Assembly: GCA_947595635.1 (NCBI GenBank)
Contig: CANQEU010000004.1
Location: 186-64,185, forward strand
Direction: 5' to 3'
Length of the DNA stretch: 64,000 nucleotides
Origin: an uncultured Clostridia bacterium
Lineage (GTDB): Bacteria > Bacillota > Clostridia > Oscillospirales > Acutalibacteraceae
The notes beneath the pieces are model-generated. The model had not been told where the DNA came from, made no database searches, and saw nothing but the letters and a program-made list of their open reading frames with translations. Below, piece after piece: positions 20,182 through 64,000 of the stretch. Made by a program: the position numbers and the translations under genes. Position 1 is the stretch's first letter; every line of letters starts with the position of its first letter.

Positions 20182-20290
20182 TTGACCGCAGGCGGACTGT
20201 GACCGCAGCATTGCCGCCTTGCGTCGGCAATGCTGCTGCTTTAAAATTGGATTTTAAACGGGGGGAGCTGACGCTCCCCCGTAAACCCCC
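20182..20290 (+). repeat. Mosaic palindromic repeat locus R1 (modules B+D)
   Basis: 12-bp hairpin gcagcattgccg/cggcaatgctgc, then ggggggagc-tgac-gctccccc; homologous to the loci at 28.8, 57.2 and 63.7 kb. Confidence 0.9.
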
Positions 20291-20381
20291 ACCTGCTTGC
20301 TCAAGGATTTATTTTATAATCCCCTTTACGGGCGTATAAGCTAAATCAGGCAAAATTTCTTGTGACGGAATTTGGTGTATT

Positions 20382-22898: not shown

Positions 22899-23791
22899 TA
22901 GGACTTTATCACGTCACAAAAAAATTCGGCAAGCTTGCCGCGCTCGACGATATATCGCTGAAGCTTGAAAACGGAAATATCCTTGGTCTTGTGGGGTCGA
23001 ACGGTTCGGGAAAATCCACAATGCTGAGAATTATCGGAGGAGTTTTTGAAGCCGACAGCGGAAACGTCCTCATAGACGGCGAAGAAAATTTTGAAAACGA
23101 AAAAGCAAAGAATAAAATATTTTTTGTAAGCGATTATCCATACTTTTATAATGATTCAACAATTAAAAATACAGCAGATCTTTACAGGAGCCTGTATAAA
23201 AGCTGGGACGAGCAAAAATTTCAAAAGCTTTGCTCTATGTTCCCAATCAACACAAAGGCGAGAATCGTCAATATGTCAAAGGGTATGCAGCGTCAGGCGG
23301 CGCTTATACTCGCGCTTAGCTGCCGCCCGAAATACCTTTTGCTTGACGAAATATTCGACGGTCTTGACCCCGTGGTGAGAATGCTTGTAAAAAAGCTTAT
23401 TATTGACGATGTTACAGAGGGTATGAGCGTTATAATCGCTTCTCACAATCTGAGAGAGCTTGAAGATTTCTGCGACCATATCGCTCTGCTGCATCACGGC
23501 AAGATTATCTATGCAAGCGAGCTTGACTATGCAAAAATGAGCATCAGTAAAATTCAGGCAGCTTTTTCAGCTCCGCCGACGGTTCAGGATATGGAGCAGT
23601 TTGAAATTTTAAGCTCAAGTATGCGCGGTCAGCTTTATAAGCTGATAATAAGAGGAAGTCAGGACGAAATTCTTGAGCGTATGCGCTCGCTCAATCCTGT
23701 ATTTATAGAAGCGCTTCCTCTTACACTTGAAGAGATTTTTATTTATGAAATGGAGGGAGCAGGCTATGACGTCAGCAACATCATCGAATAA
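22895..23791 (+). CDS. ABC transporter ATP-binding protein (YtrB-like)
   Basis: GSNGSGKST, signature MSKGM, LLLDE, ASH. Confidence 0.92.
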   Translation: MIGLYHVTKKFGKLAALDDISLKLENGNILGLVGSNGSGKSTMLRIIGGVFEADSGNVLIDGEENFENEKAKNKIFFVSDYPYFYNDSTIKNTADLYRSLYKSWDEQKFQKLCSMFPINTKARIVNMSKGMQRQAALILALSCRPKYLLLDEIFDGLDPVVRMLVKKLIIDDVTEGMSVIIASHNLRELEDFCDHIALLHHGKIIYASELDYAKMSISKIQAAFSAPPTVQDMEQFEILSSSMRGQLYKLIIRGSQDEILERMRSLNPVFIEALPLTLEEIFIYEMEGAGYDVSNIIE

Positions 23792-26375
23792 TCTGAAATA
23801 CAAAAATTCCTTTTTATCGGTTTTCATTTGGACCATTAAAAAACACAAGGCTTTAGCTATCATATATTCATCTCTGCTTATTTTTTCATGTCCGGTAATC
23901 TCGCTTCTTACTAATATGTCGGTAGGCACAATGAACAGCCCCGTAATTCCGGCAACCTTCGCAATTGTTACCACTACGGTCGCTATGGTTATGAGCATTA
24001 TAGTGCCGGTTATGCTGTTAGACTATATGCACAACAAGCGCAAAGCAGATATTTTCGGCGCTATGCCTATAACAAGGAGAAAGCTCTTTTTCTCACGCTA
24101 TCTTGCAGGTCTTGCAATTCTGATCGTCCCCTATCTGATAAACGGATTAATCTCCATTCTTCTCTCCCTGCCATGTGTGATAAATTCCTTTTATTCGCCG
24201 ACCTTTATAACAAACATCGTTATAATAATGCTCTTCGCAATTACCGCCTCTTATTCGTTCACTTCGTTTATCGCGGTGTGCAGCGGAACAACGGCAAACG
24301 CTGTTTTATGTACGATTTTTATAAACCTTGCCTATCCTATGGCATTTAATCTGCTTTCGTTCTTCAGCTCATCTATTATCCCCGGCGTAAATATTCAGTT
24401 TTGGGGAAGCAAGTTTTTCTCCAATTTCCTCGCGCCTCTTATTTCCCCCTACGAAAACATCGTTGAAATGTTTTTTAACACTATAAACCACTCCTATATG
24501 CCTAATTTATTCTCGAGCGCGGCAAACATTGCGCTTATCATATGCTCGCTTGTAATGTGCTTTTTCTTCACGAAAAAAAGAAAAACCGAGGCTGCGCAAA
24601 ATTCGTTTGCATACAAGGCTCCCGGCGTTATTATAAGCCTTATCGTCACGGCGGCGTGCGGTATGTTTGTCGCTTTAATTTGCAGCGTGCTCGCAACGTC
24701 GCCCTACAACGAAAACGGCAGCGCCGCCGTAACGTCGCCGTGGTTAGTCTTTGCGATATTTATTATCGCGTTTATAATAACGGCGTTTTTCGCTCATATT
24801 GTCGTAACGGTGATATACAACAAGGGCTTTACTGGATTTTTAAAATCTTTGATTTGCTATGTGCTTGTTGCCGTATTTATCTCGGGAATTTACACCACCT
24901 TAGCCTTCGGATGCTTTGGCATGGACAAATATGTTCCCTCCGACGACGAGATAAAAAGCGCAAATTTGACATTTTTCGACAACGAAAGCGGATACAGCTA
25001 CGGATTCGGATCATTGGGCTTTGAAATATTTTCCGCTTTTCTCGGCAACAGCTTTGACATTGAATTTTACGGACACCCTATCAGCGCGTTAAGTAAAGAG
25101 GATATAGGCTCTATAACGGATATACACAGAGAAATAATCGACAGTATTTCAAAAAGCAAGACTCCGCCTTATCATATTTATACTATAGCCGACAGCTCAA
25201 TGAGTGTGTCATACAGCGATGATATGACTCGCGATGTCGGAAGAATAGTCATAAATTATGAGCTTAAAAACGGCTCCAAGGTTGAAAGAAACTACAATTA
25301 CTCCGACGTAAAAAACTGCTCTTACTTAATGAGTAAACTATTGACGCTCAAAGAGCATTCTACCAAAAACAATTTAGCACAGCTTCAAAACCTTTTGTCC
25401 GAAAAGAAAATTGAAATAACCTCAGCAGTCCTAAATGGCGTTTCAAAAATAAATATCGACAAGCAAAAAATAAAGGACGAGTTTATTTCTGCCTTCTTAA
25501 GCGATTTTAATTCGGTTAAAAAATATGAATACACCGCAGACGCAATAGATATTAACATTAATTACTGCGACAAGGACTCAGAAGCCAAGCACAGCATTTC
25601 CGCGTTTATCCCGAAGGGCTTTAATAATACTATCAAGATGCTTGAGCAGTACGGATACGCCGCTTCTTTAGGTCAAGACATATCCTCCCTGTCGAATAAA
25701 CATTATGAGTATTTTGAGCTTCCCGAAAATATAAGCAATGTTAATCTTAAAGATAATACCGTTAATTTAACATCAAATCAGAACTCCTATATGAATTACA
25801 AATATATTAATTTTACCTCAATAACATATTATCTTGATAATAATATTATTTATGCCGATGATGAGTACATTTACGACGATTCAACCGATTTGGAAGAAGA
25901 TGAGGACGATGCGGATTACGAGGACGACGATTTTATATATACGGACGAAACCTCAAAGCCGTTGGTGGACGCATACAGAAAAGATAAGCTCTACTGTAGG
26001 GTAGTATATTCAGACAAAAGCGGAAACCTCTATTATTACGATGAGAAATTCTCTGATTTTGAGAAATATGCAAATATAGAGGACAAACTGAAAGCTTTGA
26101 ATGATGACAGCATTAAATACAACATATACAACAGCGACATCAGCTACATGAAAATCCCGTTGCTTAGAGATAAAAACGACGCAAATAAAATTTATACTCC
26201 AAGCATATTACAGCTATACACCGACGACGAGAAAGTAATCACTCAGCCGTTAAATATAGATATGTTCAACGGTGATGAGAATTACGGAGGGGCTAACGAA
26301 TCGCAAATCTATATTGACACAACCTACTTATTAAAGAAAAACGGCAAAACATATATTGATATGTATGGGCCATAA
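23766..26375 (+). CDS. ABC exporter permease with large C-terminal extramembrane region
   Basis: About 10 hydrophobic segments in the first ~390 aa, then a long soluble region with an acidic linker; start moved to ATG 23766 after GGAG. Confidence 0.8.
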   Translation: MTSATSSNNLKYKNSFLSVFIWTIKKHKALAIIYSSLLIFSCPVISLLTNMSVGTMNSPVIPATFAIVTTTVAMVMSIIVPVMLLDYMHNKRKADIFGAMPITRRKLFFSRYLAGLAILIVPYLINGLISILLSLPCVINSFYSPTFITNIVIIMLFAITASYSFTSFIAVCSGTTANAVLCTIFINLAYPMAFNLLSFFSSSIIPGVNIQFWGSKFFSNFLAPLISPYENIVEMFFNTINHSYMPNLFSSAANIALIICSLVMCFFFTKKRKTEAAQNSFAYKAPGVIISLIVTAACGMFVALICSVLATSPYNENGSAAVTSPWLVFAIFIIAFIITAFFAHIVVTVIYNKGFTGFLKSLICYVLVAVFISGIYTTLAFGCFGMDKYVPSDDEIKSANLTFFDNESGYSYGFGSLGFEIFSAFLGNSFDIEFYGHPISALSKEDIGSITDIHREIIDSISKSKTPPYHIYTIADSSMSVSYSDDMTRDVGRIVINYELKNGSKVERNYNYSDVKNCSYLMSKLLTLKEHSTKNNLAQLQNLLSEKKIEITSAVLNGVSKINIDKQKIKDEFISAFLSDFNSVKKYEYTADAIDININYCDKDSEAKHSISAFIPKGFNNTIKMLEQYGYAASLGQDISSLSNKHYEYFELPENISNVNLKDNTVNLTSNQNSYMNYKYINFTSITYYLDNNIIYADDEYIYDDSTDLEEDEDDADYEDDDFIYTDETSKPLVDAYRKDKLYCRVVYSDKSGNLYYYDEKFSDFEKYANIEDKLKALNDDSIKYNIYNSDISYMKIPLLRDKNDANKIYTPSILQLYTDDEKVITQPLNIDMFNGDENYGGANESQIYIDTTYLLKKNGKTYIDMYGP

Positions 26376-28734: not shown

Positions 28735-28767
28735 AAAGTTTCTCAAAAAGTATTTTTGCCTATGTTG

Positions 28768-29202
28768 CCTTGAACCGCAGTCAGCGCCGCTGCGCAGCGG
28801 GACTGCTGCTTAAGTGTTTATTTTTGCAGGAGAAAGTGGGGTTACGGGGGAGCGACAGCTCCCCCGTTTAAAATCCAACTTAAAAGCAGCGGCGTTATCG
28901 GCGCAAGCCGGTCTGCCTGCGGTCATAGAAATATAAAACAAAGTGTTTTTGCTTTGAAAAATAAGATTTATAATTTCACTTTGCCCTCGTGCCGGGCAGG
29001 TTTCTTTAATAAAAAACTTTTTTGATTTTTATTTTCTTAAAATCATTTTTTATTAGCAATAAAACACTATAATTCGCTTGCAATCTTTGGCAGACTTTGG
29101 GGTTGCAAGGGGCTTGCCCCCTTGCATAATAAATAAATATTAAAGCAGCAGCGTTACCGGCGCAAGTCGGTAACGCTGCGGTCATAGTCTGCCTGCGGTC
29201 AA
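28768..29202 (-). repeat. Mosaic palindromic repeat locus R2 (minus-strand order B, C, spacer, B, D, half A)
   Basis: Reverse-complement copies of the modules at 57.4-58.2 and 63.7-64.0 kb. Confidence 0.9.
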
Positions 29203-29216
29203 CGCTGCAAAAGAAT

Positions 29217-31680: not shown

Positions 31681-31755
31681 TAATGTATTGATAAAATTCA
31701 AGCAGTAACGGCTTCTTTGCTGTTTTCAGCGCAGAGAAACGAAAGGATTGATAAT

Positions 31756-32604
31756 ATGAGATTTTGCAGCAGATGCGGCTCTCAGGTGAGAGAGGGCGAG
31801 CTGTTCTGTTCAAACTGCGGCTCACGTCTTTCAGAACCAAAAAACGAATATAACGACGGCTTTAACAGCGGCAGTGAAAACACCGAGGATTATTCTGTAT
31901 TTAAAAATATCGGCGAACCGCAAAGGGACGACAATAACATATACAGTCATTCGCACAGCGGCGCAAGCACCGAACGCGTCGGATATGGCGCTGCAAGGGA
32001 CGATTTTGACGAAAAATCACAGAGCATCGGCGACAAGCCGTACATCAAAAAAGTATGCCCCAACTGCAACCAGCCGCTTGAGCGCAATCAACGTGTATGC
32101 CCCTACTGCGGATATGACGTTACAAGATATAACGACGACTATGATTCGCCTATAGAAGGCGAATTTCAGCCGGCTGACCGCAGAAATATAAATTCAGGCG
32201 ATAATAAAAGCGGCAAAAGCAACACTCCGCTTATAATAGGAATAGTAACCGCTGTAGTAATCGTAATTGCGGCTGTTATCGTTTTCTTCGTATTTATGGG
32301 AAACAATAATAAAACGGCGACATCGCAGACGGATACGCCAACGGAAACACAACAGCAATCTGAGGCGGTAACCGAAACAGAGGCTCAGACAGAGGAATAC
32401 ATAACCGAGCCCGAATATGTAAGCACAGAGCCGCCCACGGAGGCGCCGACCGAAGCGCCCACAGAACCGCCAACCGAAGCGCCGACTGAAGAACCCACAG
32501 AACCACCGACCGAAGCGCCGACTGAAGAACCGGAAGAACAGCCGACAGAAGCAAGCTCAGCCGTAACACTTGAAAACAACCAATCGAGCGATTTAGCGAT
32601 TTAA
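31756..32604 (+). CDS. Zinc-ribbon membrane protein with extracellular TEAP/TEPP repeats
   Basis: CSRCG..CSNCG and CPNC..CPYCG ribbons, one TM helix, repeated TE(A/P/E)P; ATG 31756 after GAAAGGA. Confidence 0.8.
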   Translation: MRFCSRCGSQVREGELFCSNCGSRLSEPKNEYNDGFNSGSENTEDYSVFKNIGEPQRDDNNIYSHSHSGASTERVGYGAARDDFDEKSQSIGDKPYIKKVCPNCNQPLERNQRVCPYCGYDVTRYNDDYDSPIEGEFQPADRRNINSGDNKSGKSNTPLIIGIVTAVVIVIAAVIVFFVFMGNNNKTATSQTDTPTETQQQSEAVTETEAQTEEYITEPEYVSTEPPTEAPTEAPTEPPTEAPTEEPTEPPTEAPTEEPEEQPTEASSAVTLENNQSSDLAI

Positions 32605-57198: not shown

Positions 57199-58232
57199 GC
57201 TTAGCGCCGCAGACTTTAGGTCTGCGGCGCTCCGATTCTGTTGATAAACCTATTTTTTGATAAGTTATCACCTGCTGAAGCTTTAAAATTTGGTTTTAAA
57301 CGTGGAATTGAAGCCCACCGTAAATCCTCACTTCCTCTTTAATAGAATTTTTTAGTCTAAATTCGTTCTGCTAAACTAATTTACGGGTTTAAAATATTAT
57401 TTAAGTAAAATTCCCTTGTGCGAGAATGATGAGGTGCAGGAGAAGCGAAGCTTCTACTGCAAAAAATAAAATCTTATGCAGCAGTGCTGACTGCGGTTCA
57501 AGGAACACAAAGACAAAAACACTTTTTGACCGCAGGCAGACCGCCTTGCGGCGACCTGCCTGCTGCTTTATATTTAGTTTATTATGCAAGGGGCTAAACG
57601 CCCCTTGCAACCCCAAAGCCTGCTCAGGGATTGCAAGTAAATAAAAGTTTTAATCTTCTTTCACATATTTGAACGCATAATTAATCTTCCCTCACAGGCA
57701 GAGAGCGCAATGCAACCATTCCAAGGCAAGCAAAAGCTTGAAAATAAATATTCCTTAAACGAGAATGATGAGGTGCAGGAGAAGCGAAGCTTCTCCTGCA
57801 AAAAAAATAAAATCTTAAGCAGCAGTGCTGACTGCGGTTCAAGGACGACACAGTAAATAATATTTTTTTGACGAGGCTCTCGCCGACCGCAGCGTTACCG
57901 ACTTGCACCGGTAACGCTGCTGCTTTAATATTGTGTTATATTAAAGGGGGAGCTGACGCTCCCCCTTTAAATCCCCTTTTTTGTTCGCTCAAAAAATACT
58001 TTGATTTTAATTCATGTTATAAAAGCTTATTTACGGGTATAAAAGCTTAATCAAGCAAAATTCCCTTGTGTGAGAATGATGAGGCGCAGGAGAAGCGAAG
58101 CTTCTACTGCAAAAAATAAAATCTTAAGCAGGAGTCCCGCTGCGCAGCAGTGCTGACTGCGGTTCAAGGATTATATGGACAAAAACTTTTTTACAAGCTG
58201 AGCGCCGCAGACTTTAAGTCTGCGGCGCTCCT
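57199..58232 (+). repeat. Mosaic palindromic repeat locus R3 (E-A-B-C-A-B-D-A-E), about 1 kb, non-coding
   Basis: Module A at 57411-57503, 57751-57844, 58061-58169; B at 57526 and 57885; C at 57583; D at 57941; E at 57203 and 58201. Confidence 0.92.
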
Positions 58233-63601: not shown

Positions 63602-63604
63602 CGT

Positions 63605-63637
63605 CGCGGCAAGCCCTTGTGGCTTGCCGCGATTTTT
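63605..63637 (+). terminator. Terminator after tRNA-Gln
   Basis: tcgcggcaagcc/ggcttgccgcga followed by ttttt. Confidence 0.75.
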
Positions 63638-63678
63638 ATGCAAAATCGCGGCGTTCGCCTTTCGGGCTGCCGCTCTTT

Positions 63679-64000
63679 TTGACCGCAGCGTTACCGCCTT
63701 GCGCCGGTAACGCTGCTGCTTTATATTAGTTTGTTATGCAAGGGGCTAAACGCCCCTTGCAACCCCAAAGCCTGCTCACGGATTGCAAGCAAATACTTGA
63801 AAGTAAATATCCCTTAAGCGAGAATGATGAGGTGCAGGAGAAGCGAAGCTTCTCCTGCAAAAAATAAACCCTTAAGCAGCAGTTCCGCTGCGCAGCGGCG
63901 CTGACTGCGGTTCAAGGATTACATAAGAAAAAAATTTTATTAGTTCTCGCCTTGCGCCGGTAACGCTGCTTCTTTAAAATTAAGTTTTATACGGGGGGAG
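63679..64000 (+). repeat. Mosaic palindromic repeat locus R4 (B-C-A-half B-D), running off the window end
   Basis: B 63679-63722, C 63735-63789, A 63810-63917, partial B 63949-63975, D starting at 63991. Confidence 0.9.

Follow-up and report, generated by a model that had tools for sequence, protein, structure and literature searches.

Modular hairpin repeats of a previously undescribed family are dispersed and vary between strains of a rabbit-gut Oscillospirales bacterium

Short palindromic modules recur at four intergenic sites in a 64,000-nucleotide stretch of DNA (hereafter the window) from an uncultured Clostridia bacterium, which raises the question of whether they belong to a mobile repeat family and, if so, of what kind and how it spreads. 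The window is core chromosome with housekeeping genes, including the dcw cluster, priA-def-fmt, recO, mutS2 and ctsR-mcsAB-clpC. Its host is an uncultured Oscillospirales bacterium (Acutalibacteraceae/Ruminococcaceae-like) of the rabbit gut, and only metagenomes from rabbit gut and related gut sources contain the sequence. Among the GTDB species representatives returned, none has a ClpC above 69% identity, the best being Ruminococcus bromii and Acutalibacter/UBA1417-like genomes, while the DUF2140-like protein beside the 57-kb site has no homologue above 44% identity among 5.8 billion proteins. Judging from these comparisons the host is probably an undescribed Oscillospirales genus from rabbit gut. 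The closest syntenic contigs (L096-L099) show about 74% DNA identity.

An initial annotation, made from the sequence alone, had proposed five modules (A to E). We found A, B, C and D to be real repeats, confined to 20.2, 28.8-29.2, 57.2-58.2 and 63.7-64.0 kb, where chance would be expected to produce none; every copy listed in that annotation was present, and there were none elsewhere in the 64 kb. In pattern searches of the window with shuffled controls, the 5' part of A was found four times (57422, 57761, 58072 and 63820), its 3' motif GCTGACTGCGGTTCAAGG in five exact copies (one of them reversed, at 28768-28785), and the B loop with 3' arm and AT tail seven times, against an expectation of 0 in each case. 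Direct-repeat detection returned one group that corresponds to A at 57.4, 57.7, 58.05 and 63.8 kb and a second that corresponds to B plus C/D at 20.2, 57.5, 57.9, 63.7 and 63.9 kb. The one additional copy that profile search revealed in the 64 kb was a decayed B3'-linker-D (57274-57331). Since independent ENA and Logan assemblies carry the same modules, the repeats are no assembly artefact. The five-module reading nevertheless required revision: E proved not to be a family module but a duplicated local terminator (see below), and two modules were added, namely F, which comes after D (copies at 20325, 57380 and 58030), and G, which comes after C (57615, 63767 and, reversed, 29077).

Followed in the orientation of the element, an array runs from B through an AT linker to C or D, then to G (behind C) or F (behind D), a spacer, A, an A/T linker and the next B, and so on. 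B was indeed always followed by C (3/7) or D (4/7, with one D cut by the window end), and within each of the four arrays all modules share one orientation, with A cores in direct orientation at spacings of at least 310 nt. Three of the four arrays lie on the + strand, a number too small for a test of orientation against replication. The fixed module grammar that had been proposed describes the window but not other strains and metagenome contigs, where we observed D without B, A cores joined to other sequences, and chimeric B arms. The placement of the modules always just 3' of genes is to be read as intergenic. All copies in the window are intergenic, with arrays adjacent to gene terminators; the neighbouring genes are convergent at two sites and tandem at one, and the fourth site follows tRNA-Gln.

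Module A begins with a 45-nt core made up of a 13-nt head, which reads GAGAATGATGAGG in every copy of the window, a hairpin with 12 perfect base pairs and a GAA loop, and an A-run. Beyond the core come a small CAGC/GCTG hairpin, the tip of which sometimes carries the palindrome CCGCTGCGCAGCGG, then the 3' motif and a conserved linker of about 25 nt. Next to this linker there is always a GC-rich hairpin, be it B, E2 (58.2 kb) or the terminator of the sigma-factor gene (28.7 kb), and a single motif occurs as CTGCGGT in A-3' and, inverted, as ACCGCAG at the 5' side of B. The GCGAAGC mini-hairpin to which the initial annotation drew attention is typical of A but not essential, because the orthologous A hairpin in two contigs (L008 and L009) has a different tip and loop (GGAG-CAAAA-CTCC) and still pairs; one pair of the A hairpin shows a compensatory change. 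Two other readings of A were rejected. A C/D-box or k-turn interpretation of TGATGA...CTGA was abandoned, as TGATGA is replaced by TGTGGA in an orthologous copy and the snoRNA matches were noise, and a small peptide starting at the ATGATG of the core was discarded given the variable length of the A-run and the lack of a conserved frame.

The array at 57.2-58.2 kb lies on the + strand between two copies of the E hairpin. Copy 1, E1 (57200..57233; AGCGCCGCAGAC-loop-GTCTGCGGCGCT), is followed right after its CTGCGG by the left edge of the array (57234..57335), which comprises an A-linker-like stretch and then the decayed B-3'/AT-linker/D remnant. This remnant gave an nhmmer match at 57274-57331 (E=1.7e-4), the edge is also supported by alignment, and the stretch has a metagenome depth 2-3 times that of the flanks. 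There follow an F module (57380..57420; tttacggg...aaaattcccttgtg) upstream of A1; A1 itself (57421..57527), with its core of head GAGAATGATGAGG, 12-bp hairpin and A-run at 57422-57467, its 3' motif at 57486-57503 and then the A/T linker; a B of stem type 2 (57528..57570; GCAGGCAGACCG / CGACCTGCCTGC, with two mismatches); and a C hairpin (GCAAGGGG-loop-CCCCTTGC plus AACCCC) with module G at 57615-57637, together spanning 57586..57637. A2 (57760..57884; core 57761-57808), the highest-copy segment of the family, is succeeded by a B of stem type 1 (57885..57927; GCAGCGTTACCG / CGGTAACGCTGC), a D hairpin with trailing CCCC (57943..57976; GGGGGAGC-TGAC-GCTCCCCC), an F module upstream of A3 (58030..58070), and A3 (58071..58197), which has the optional CCGCTGCGCAGC insert and a 3' linker that abuts E2 instead of B. 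E2 (58198..58232), copy 2 of the hairpin, then leads into a T-run and is the terminator common to the DUF2140-like gene and clpC. We noted that the spacer between G and A2 (57638-57725, about 80-90 nt) has no counterpart in the otherwise parallel G-A4 junction (63.79 kb); some metagenome contigs skip it, with a joint from 57631 to 57711, and its depth is about 10-16 times flank. It is another optional module.

The 20.2-kb array (20182..20366, + strand) consists of a half-B prefix (20182-20200), B (20201-20243), D (20256-20290), a G-like stretch and F (20325-20366), and it stops 15 nt short of the start of a pseudouridine-synthase gene. F and a GAGAAT-like hexamer (CGGAAT, with TTGTGA before it) occupy 20325-20381 and end 15 nt upstream of the ATG of this RluA-type enzyme, and from this position the repeat may serve as a promoter source for the gene or be the cause of a very short leader. 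The 28.8-29.2-kb array (28741..29203) lies on the - strand and comprises a half-B prefix plus B (29141-29203), C (29099-29126), G (29077-29098), a spacer, a chimeric B (28882-28926), D (28836-28870) and the A 3' half with linker (28741-28834), which abuts the terminator of the sigma-factor gene. The array after tRNA-Gln (63672..64000, + strand) contains B (63681-63723), C (63738-63766), G (63767-63789), A4 (63819-63942) and a 5'-truncated B (63948-63976), then the start of a D that is cut by the window end. Between the tRNA gene and this array, at 63602-63672, there is a canonical terminator (GCGGCAAGCC-CTTGT-GGCTTGCCGC plus T-run), and a second, imperfect hairpin (GCGGCGTTCGCCTTTCGGGCTGCCGC) directly precedes the first B.

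Contigs from other samples that are 98-99% identical to the window in the flanking genes revealed that the repeats are variable or mobile between strains, with filled and empty sites as well as module-level indels. Arrays differ at three loci and are therefore not fixed in all strains. The 57-kb site is empty in three cases (L001, X6 and X7), and filled junctions were found in three others (X1, X3 and X4); in the empty allele, which differs by 1,002 nt, the left flank leads through ATCG and a single E hairpin into the right flank. At 20.2 kb one contig (L003) lacks B and has kept D. At 28.8 kb two contigs (L008 and L009) have a full-length A where the window has the A 3' half fused to D, and the 16-nt optional insert is absent from L005, L006 and L010. 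The repeat-free 20-kb stretch at 33-53 kb is collinear with a 25-kb X7 contig. In syntenic relatives, with DNA identity of about 74%, the orthologous site contains one terminator hairpin and no modules, which we take as the ancestral state, and profile search of four such relatives detected neither modules nor dispersed repeats. Contigs of this organism (L001-L011 and L092-L093) often end inside or just beside arrays, and the repeat family is a main cause of the fragmented metagenome assemblies for this species. The module arrays could also be used as strain markers.

The same comparisons settle the status of E, copies of which (57203-57231 and 58201-58229) lie on either side of the 1-kb array. 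Because E has single-copy depth in the metagenomes and stands alone at the site in a near-identical strain, it is a local terminator duplicated around the array. When filled and empty alleles are compared, the filled allele has an extra duplicated stretch of 33-47 nt that contains the E hairpin, and E1 and E2 are about 82% alike outside the stem. The 3' arm of E1 (CTGCGG) runs into A-linker-like sequence, the 5' arm of E2 (CCGCAG) stands where B has GACCGCAG, and both copies are in register with the CTGCGG and CCGCAG motifs of the family. We also considered E1 as an inverted copy of E and rejected this, since the loop difference amounts to one substitution and the flank match to just 3 nt.

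The nature of the junctions brings in the possibility, which we regard as rather unlikely though by no means negligible, that the family spreads without any enzyme, its segments being copied among hairpin-rich intergenic sites by replication template switching, gene conversion and illegitimate recombination between hairpins or microhomologies. The bounding of the 57-kb array by two E copies in register with CTGCGG/CCGCAG would be expected on this account. So would the truncated A at 28.83 kb, where D is joined at the loop to the 3' arm of the A hairpin (CTT(T)CTCCTGCA) and where the CCTGC of the junction also occurs in module G, and the B-only indel at 20.2 kb, which has similar CTG-TTT-AT stretches on either side. 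Chimeric B hairpins, several of which combine arms of two stem types, suggest exchange at loops and also favour recombination, as do the many one-off junctions in metagenome contigs, present at single-genome depth. Overall the junction sites are hairpin loops and the short inverted motif CTGCGG/CCGCAG, which the duplicated terminator E also has. What this account leaves hard to understand is the abundance and uniformity of the A core.

We estimated copy number as metagenome contig depth divided by single-copy flank depth (flanks of 9.6 in X6 and about 12.5 in X7). An 84-nt bin over A2 stood at 94-138 times flank in the four best-covered samples. At a resolution of 6-nt bins, depth jumps exactly at GAGAAT (57761) and drops in the A-run (about 57802), and the core between them (57761-57802) reaches 245-310 times flank in X6 and 300-400 times in X7, with the proviso, common to all our repeat depths, that overlapping unitigs may inflate the figures up to about two-fold and that one carrier species is assumed. 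There are roughly 100-400 core copies per genome, on the order of a hundred or more. Under the same proviso the other modules reach 26-55 (A-3'), 35-85 (B), 24-32 (D), 12-30 (C) and 10-24 (F, G and spacers) times flank, and since depths differ so strongly between modules, these behave as separate populations. A is itself composite, its 45-nt core being about ten times commoner than its 3' half. The core is near-invariant, every substitution having a share below 4%, and the dominance of one master sequence is in keeping with a defined unit that has recently been copied in a replicative manner. In one raw-read run (X11) the organism was nearly absent, and all four reads fell on repeats.

Sporadic template switching would hardly yield hundreds of dispersed near-identical 45-nt units, and near-identical dispersed cores are typical of an active replicative process with sequence recognition. 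Recombination is more likely to explain the remodelling of arrays than the dispersal of the core unit. Since the dispersed units consist of head plus hairpin, hundreds of times over and nearly identical, we infer a replicative process that recognises both sequence and structure. The window has housekeeping genes only, so any mobilising enzyme acts in trans; in agreement with the initial annotation, neither a transposase nor an HUH domain was found among its genes, and extension past the window via edge genes added 3.4 kb on the left, free of arrays, and no sequence on the right. Our preferred but tentative reading, to which we give slightly less than even odds, is that the family represents lineage-specific, non-autonomous, hairpin-forming mosaic repeats of REP/BIME- or BOX-like type, served by an HUH/Y1-type enzyme in trans. 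The core would be copied to new sites by this putative enzyme, encoded elsewhere in the genome, which would recognise head and hairpin on single-stranded DNA and for which the best precedent is a Y1-HUH protein of the RAYT or IS200/IS605 TnpA type. Recombination or template switching from hairpin to hairpin would then make local arrays grow and decay. In their new positions, the GC-rich hairpins would probably serve in transcripts as 3'-end structures, B with its U-rich tail being terminator-like. IS200-type Y1 enzymes have been reported to be well represented in Clostridia (PMC6006769).

Several observations count against parts of this preferred reading, among them the lack of a REP-type head and of inverted doublets (see below). 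The flanking of the 57-kb array by two hairpin-containing copies of 33-47 nt speaks against HUH transposition, which normally proceeds without duplication, and many junctions lie at microhomologies (CCTGC, CTGCGG), which enzyme-free recombination could explain. In a bolder version the family would move by a mechanism new to bacterial repeats, in which the small unit of head and hairpin inserts specifically at or next to GC-rich terminator hairpins with CCGCAG/CTGCGG and duplicates the hairpin, through an enzyme unrelated to RAYT/IS200 TnpA or through a new HUH subclass of Clostridia, with arrays arising by repeated self-targeting; we consider this version unlikely.

The ends of the arrays were also examined in the light of a quite different mobile element, in which the repeats would be ordinary MITEs, derived by deletion from an insertion sequence of the DDE type, with TTGACCGCAG ... 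CTGCGGTTCAA as their terminal inverted repeats, and moved by its transposase. There is some regularity of this kind, as TTGACCGCAG opens three of the four arrays, CTGCGGTTCAAGG plus linker closes two of the three complete ones, and the start and end motifs are inverted copies that match at 10/11 positions with one indel. Yet a short target-site duplication was found at no boundary, and conserved linker sequence continues about 25 nt past the putative right repeat, so that TTGACCGCAG and CTGCGGTTCAA are not terminal. Moreover, module copy numbers are very unequal, the commonest unit (the A core) is without these repeats, and plasmid and phage collections show no similarity. Of the explanations weighed here we find this one the least probable, and a distinctly poor fit.

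The structure of module B is under constraint, in line with the preferred reading. Its 12-bp stem is kept in ten distinct B copies, with both-side changes at 5/12 pairs, and none of 500 shuffles reaches the observed covariation score, while slid controls collapse; the pairing of the B stem is maintained through compensatory changes. The unit folds far better than shuffles on both strands (z = -8.2 and -9.3), and for this reason folding is blind to the active strand. We also asked whether wobble pairs reveal the strand of function, as two single-side B changes give A·C on the element strand and G·T on the complement. This line was dropped, since the cases are too few and the same 3' arm is present in both, which gene conversion may explain.

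Alternatively, the elements might be kept for a function at the RNA level, as a multicopy family of small RNAs or transcript punctuation, in which A would be a promoter (-10 GAGAAT) with a 5' hairpin and B its terminator, and convergent transcription would be ended by D on the other strand. A2 and A4 are preceded by TTGAAA-17-GAGAAT, and A1 and A3 by TGTGnGAGAAT, of the extended -10 type. B has a GC-rich 12-bp hairpin followed by UGCUUUAWAWU and, at 29.2 kb, lies 14 nt past the stop of a small gene; the constant presence of a hairpin next to the A linker and the strong folding of both strands (z = -8 to -9) are likewise consistent with such a role. On the other hand, the high-copy core begins exactly at GAGAAT and the -35/TGTG parts belong to modules about ten times rarer, so that most cores are without such a promoter, and a promoter scan returned no more sites than shuffles. 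The A hairpin is a terminator in neither direction because the A-run comes after it. The U-tract of B is weak and offset, its tail beginning 3 nt past the stem, and a terminator scanner flagged just an alternative shorter stem. Whole arrays are also dispensable in near-identical strains. Even if true, the RNA-level account would leave dispersal unexplained, and as an explanation of the family we judge it improbable.

We compared the family, read as enzyme-dispersed mosaic repeats, with known systems. It resembles the REP/BIME repeats (REPINs) of Enterobacteria and Pseudomonas, which are associated with the Y1-HUH protein RAYT/TnpA-REP, in having a short palindrome with a conserved 5' head in the order of hundreds of copies, in being strictly intergenic and near gene 3' ends, in clustering with conserved linker motifs into mosaic arrays, and in its dominant master sequence, strain presence/absence and prevalence of copies without an adjoining enzyme. 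The GTAG/GTGG tetranucleotide of REP was not found at the 5' foot of the hairpin, where all window copies have the GAGAATGATGAGG head; the one GTAG seen belongs to a minority A-3' variant, where it lies on the opposite strand. The inverted doublets of REPINs and alternating BIMEs were not found either, the units here being head-to-tail. Given these two results the family cannot be filed as REP/BIME. It differs further from REP in its perfect palindrome with a 3-nt loop and in its Clostridia host, a group in which class 2 (TnpA-REP) HUH enzymes are sparse (PMC6006769).

With the BOX (boxA-boxB(n)-boxC) and SPRITE repeats of Streptococcus pneumoniae and S. suis (PMC3049150) the family shares a Firmicute host, modules that may be absent, repeated or swapped, stable stem-loops, enrichment downstream of genes, and an uncertain mobilising enzyme. 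SPRITE resembles a Rho-independent terminator, as B may here, and the S. suis family has extra module types (PMC3049150). In contrast to BOX, no terminal A/C pair whose inverted-repeat ends enclose the remaining modules was seen in our family, a single 45-nt module is far more abundant than all others, and arrays extend to about 1 kb; no sequence relation to BOX was apparent from reading the module sequences by eye. NIMEs and Correia elements are likewise intergenic mosaics of several repeat types that can contain promoter- or terminator-like sequences and differ between strains. Each NIME unit lies between 20-bp dRS3 inverted repeats, and Correia elements have 26-bp terminal repeats and a TA duplication; no such bounds or ends are seen in the present family. 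PATEs, the palindrome-associated non-autonomous derivatives of IS200/IS605, are similar in that hairpins rather than terminal inverted repeats define the element and there is no short target duplication, and the IS200/IS605 family is common in Clostridia (PMC6006769). The present family has far more module types than the left-end/right-end pair of PATEs, and we found no common target tetranucleotide at the four left array boundaries, although PATEs insert 3' of a fixed 4-5 nt target. In its apparent working the family appears closest to REP/BIME and to BOX/SPRITE repeats.

The modules matched no Rfam family or other collection searched. At the gathering threshold Rfam identified two tRNAs only in the window, and at a permissive threshold the best scores at the locus were 12-24 bits against thresholds of 35-688. 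Exact and degenerate module patterns were absent from 185,579 reference genomes, JGI metagenomes and IMG/VR, apart from two chance matches in coding DNA. Neither a distant blastn search of plasmid and phage collections nor profile searching of the clpC surroundings in 80 reference genomes (1.4 Mb) returned copies, spurious ORFs predicted inside the repeats and used to find copies led to no protein, and a full-text literature search for the module sequences gave a single match, which was irrelevant. The general kind, bacterial interspersed mosaic hairpin repeats, is known, and what is new is the family, which is previously undescribed. To our knowledge, there is much work on small interspersed repeats of Proteobacteria (REP/BIME/REPIN) and of a few pathogens (BOX, Correia) and hardly any on those of anaerobic gut Clostridia. 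The present family provides a clear, abundant and currently active example from this group, with arrays that vary between strains whose flanks are 98-99% identical and a core that is REP-like yet departs from REP in its head motif and its orientation. Should the mobilising enzyme be found, it would show whether domesticated HUH-type transposases or something else drives such families in Firmicutes.

Two further features of the window were noted. An 882-aa ORF at 23727-26375, directly downstream of a GntR regulator and an ABC ATPase, has no Pfam match at E=0.01 and may encode a divergent permease. At 32410-32565 there is a 12-nt tandem repeat (CCSACMGAAGMG) of about 13 units inside the ORF at 31717-32604, which encodes N-terminal zinc-ribbon domains and, through the repeat, a low-complexity tail rich in Pro, Thr, Glu and Ala.
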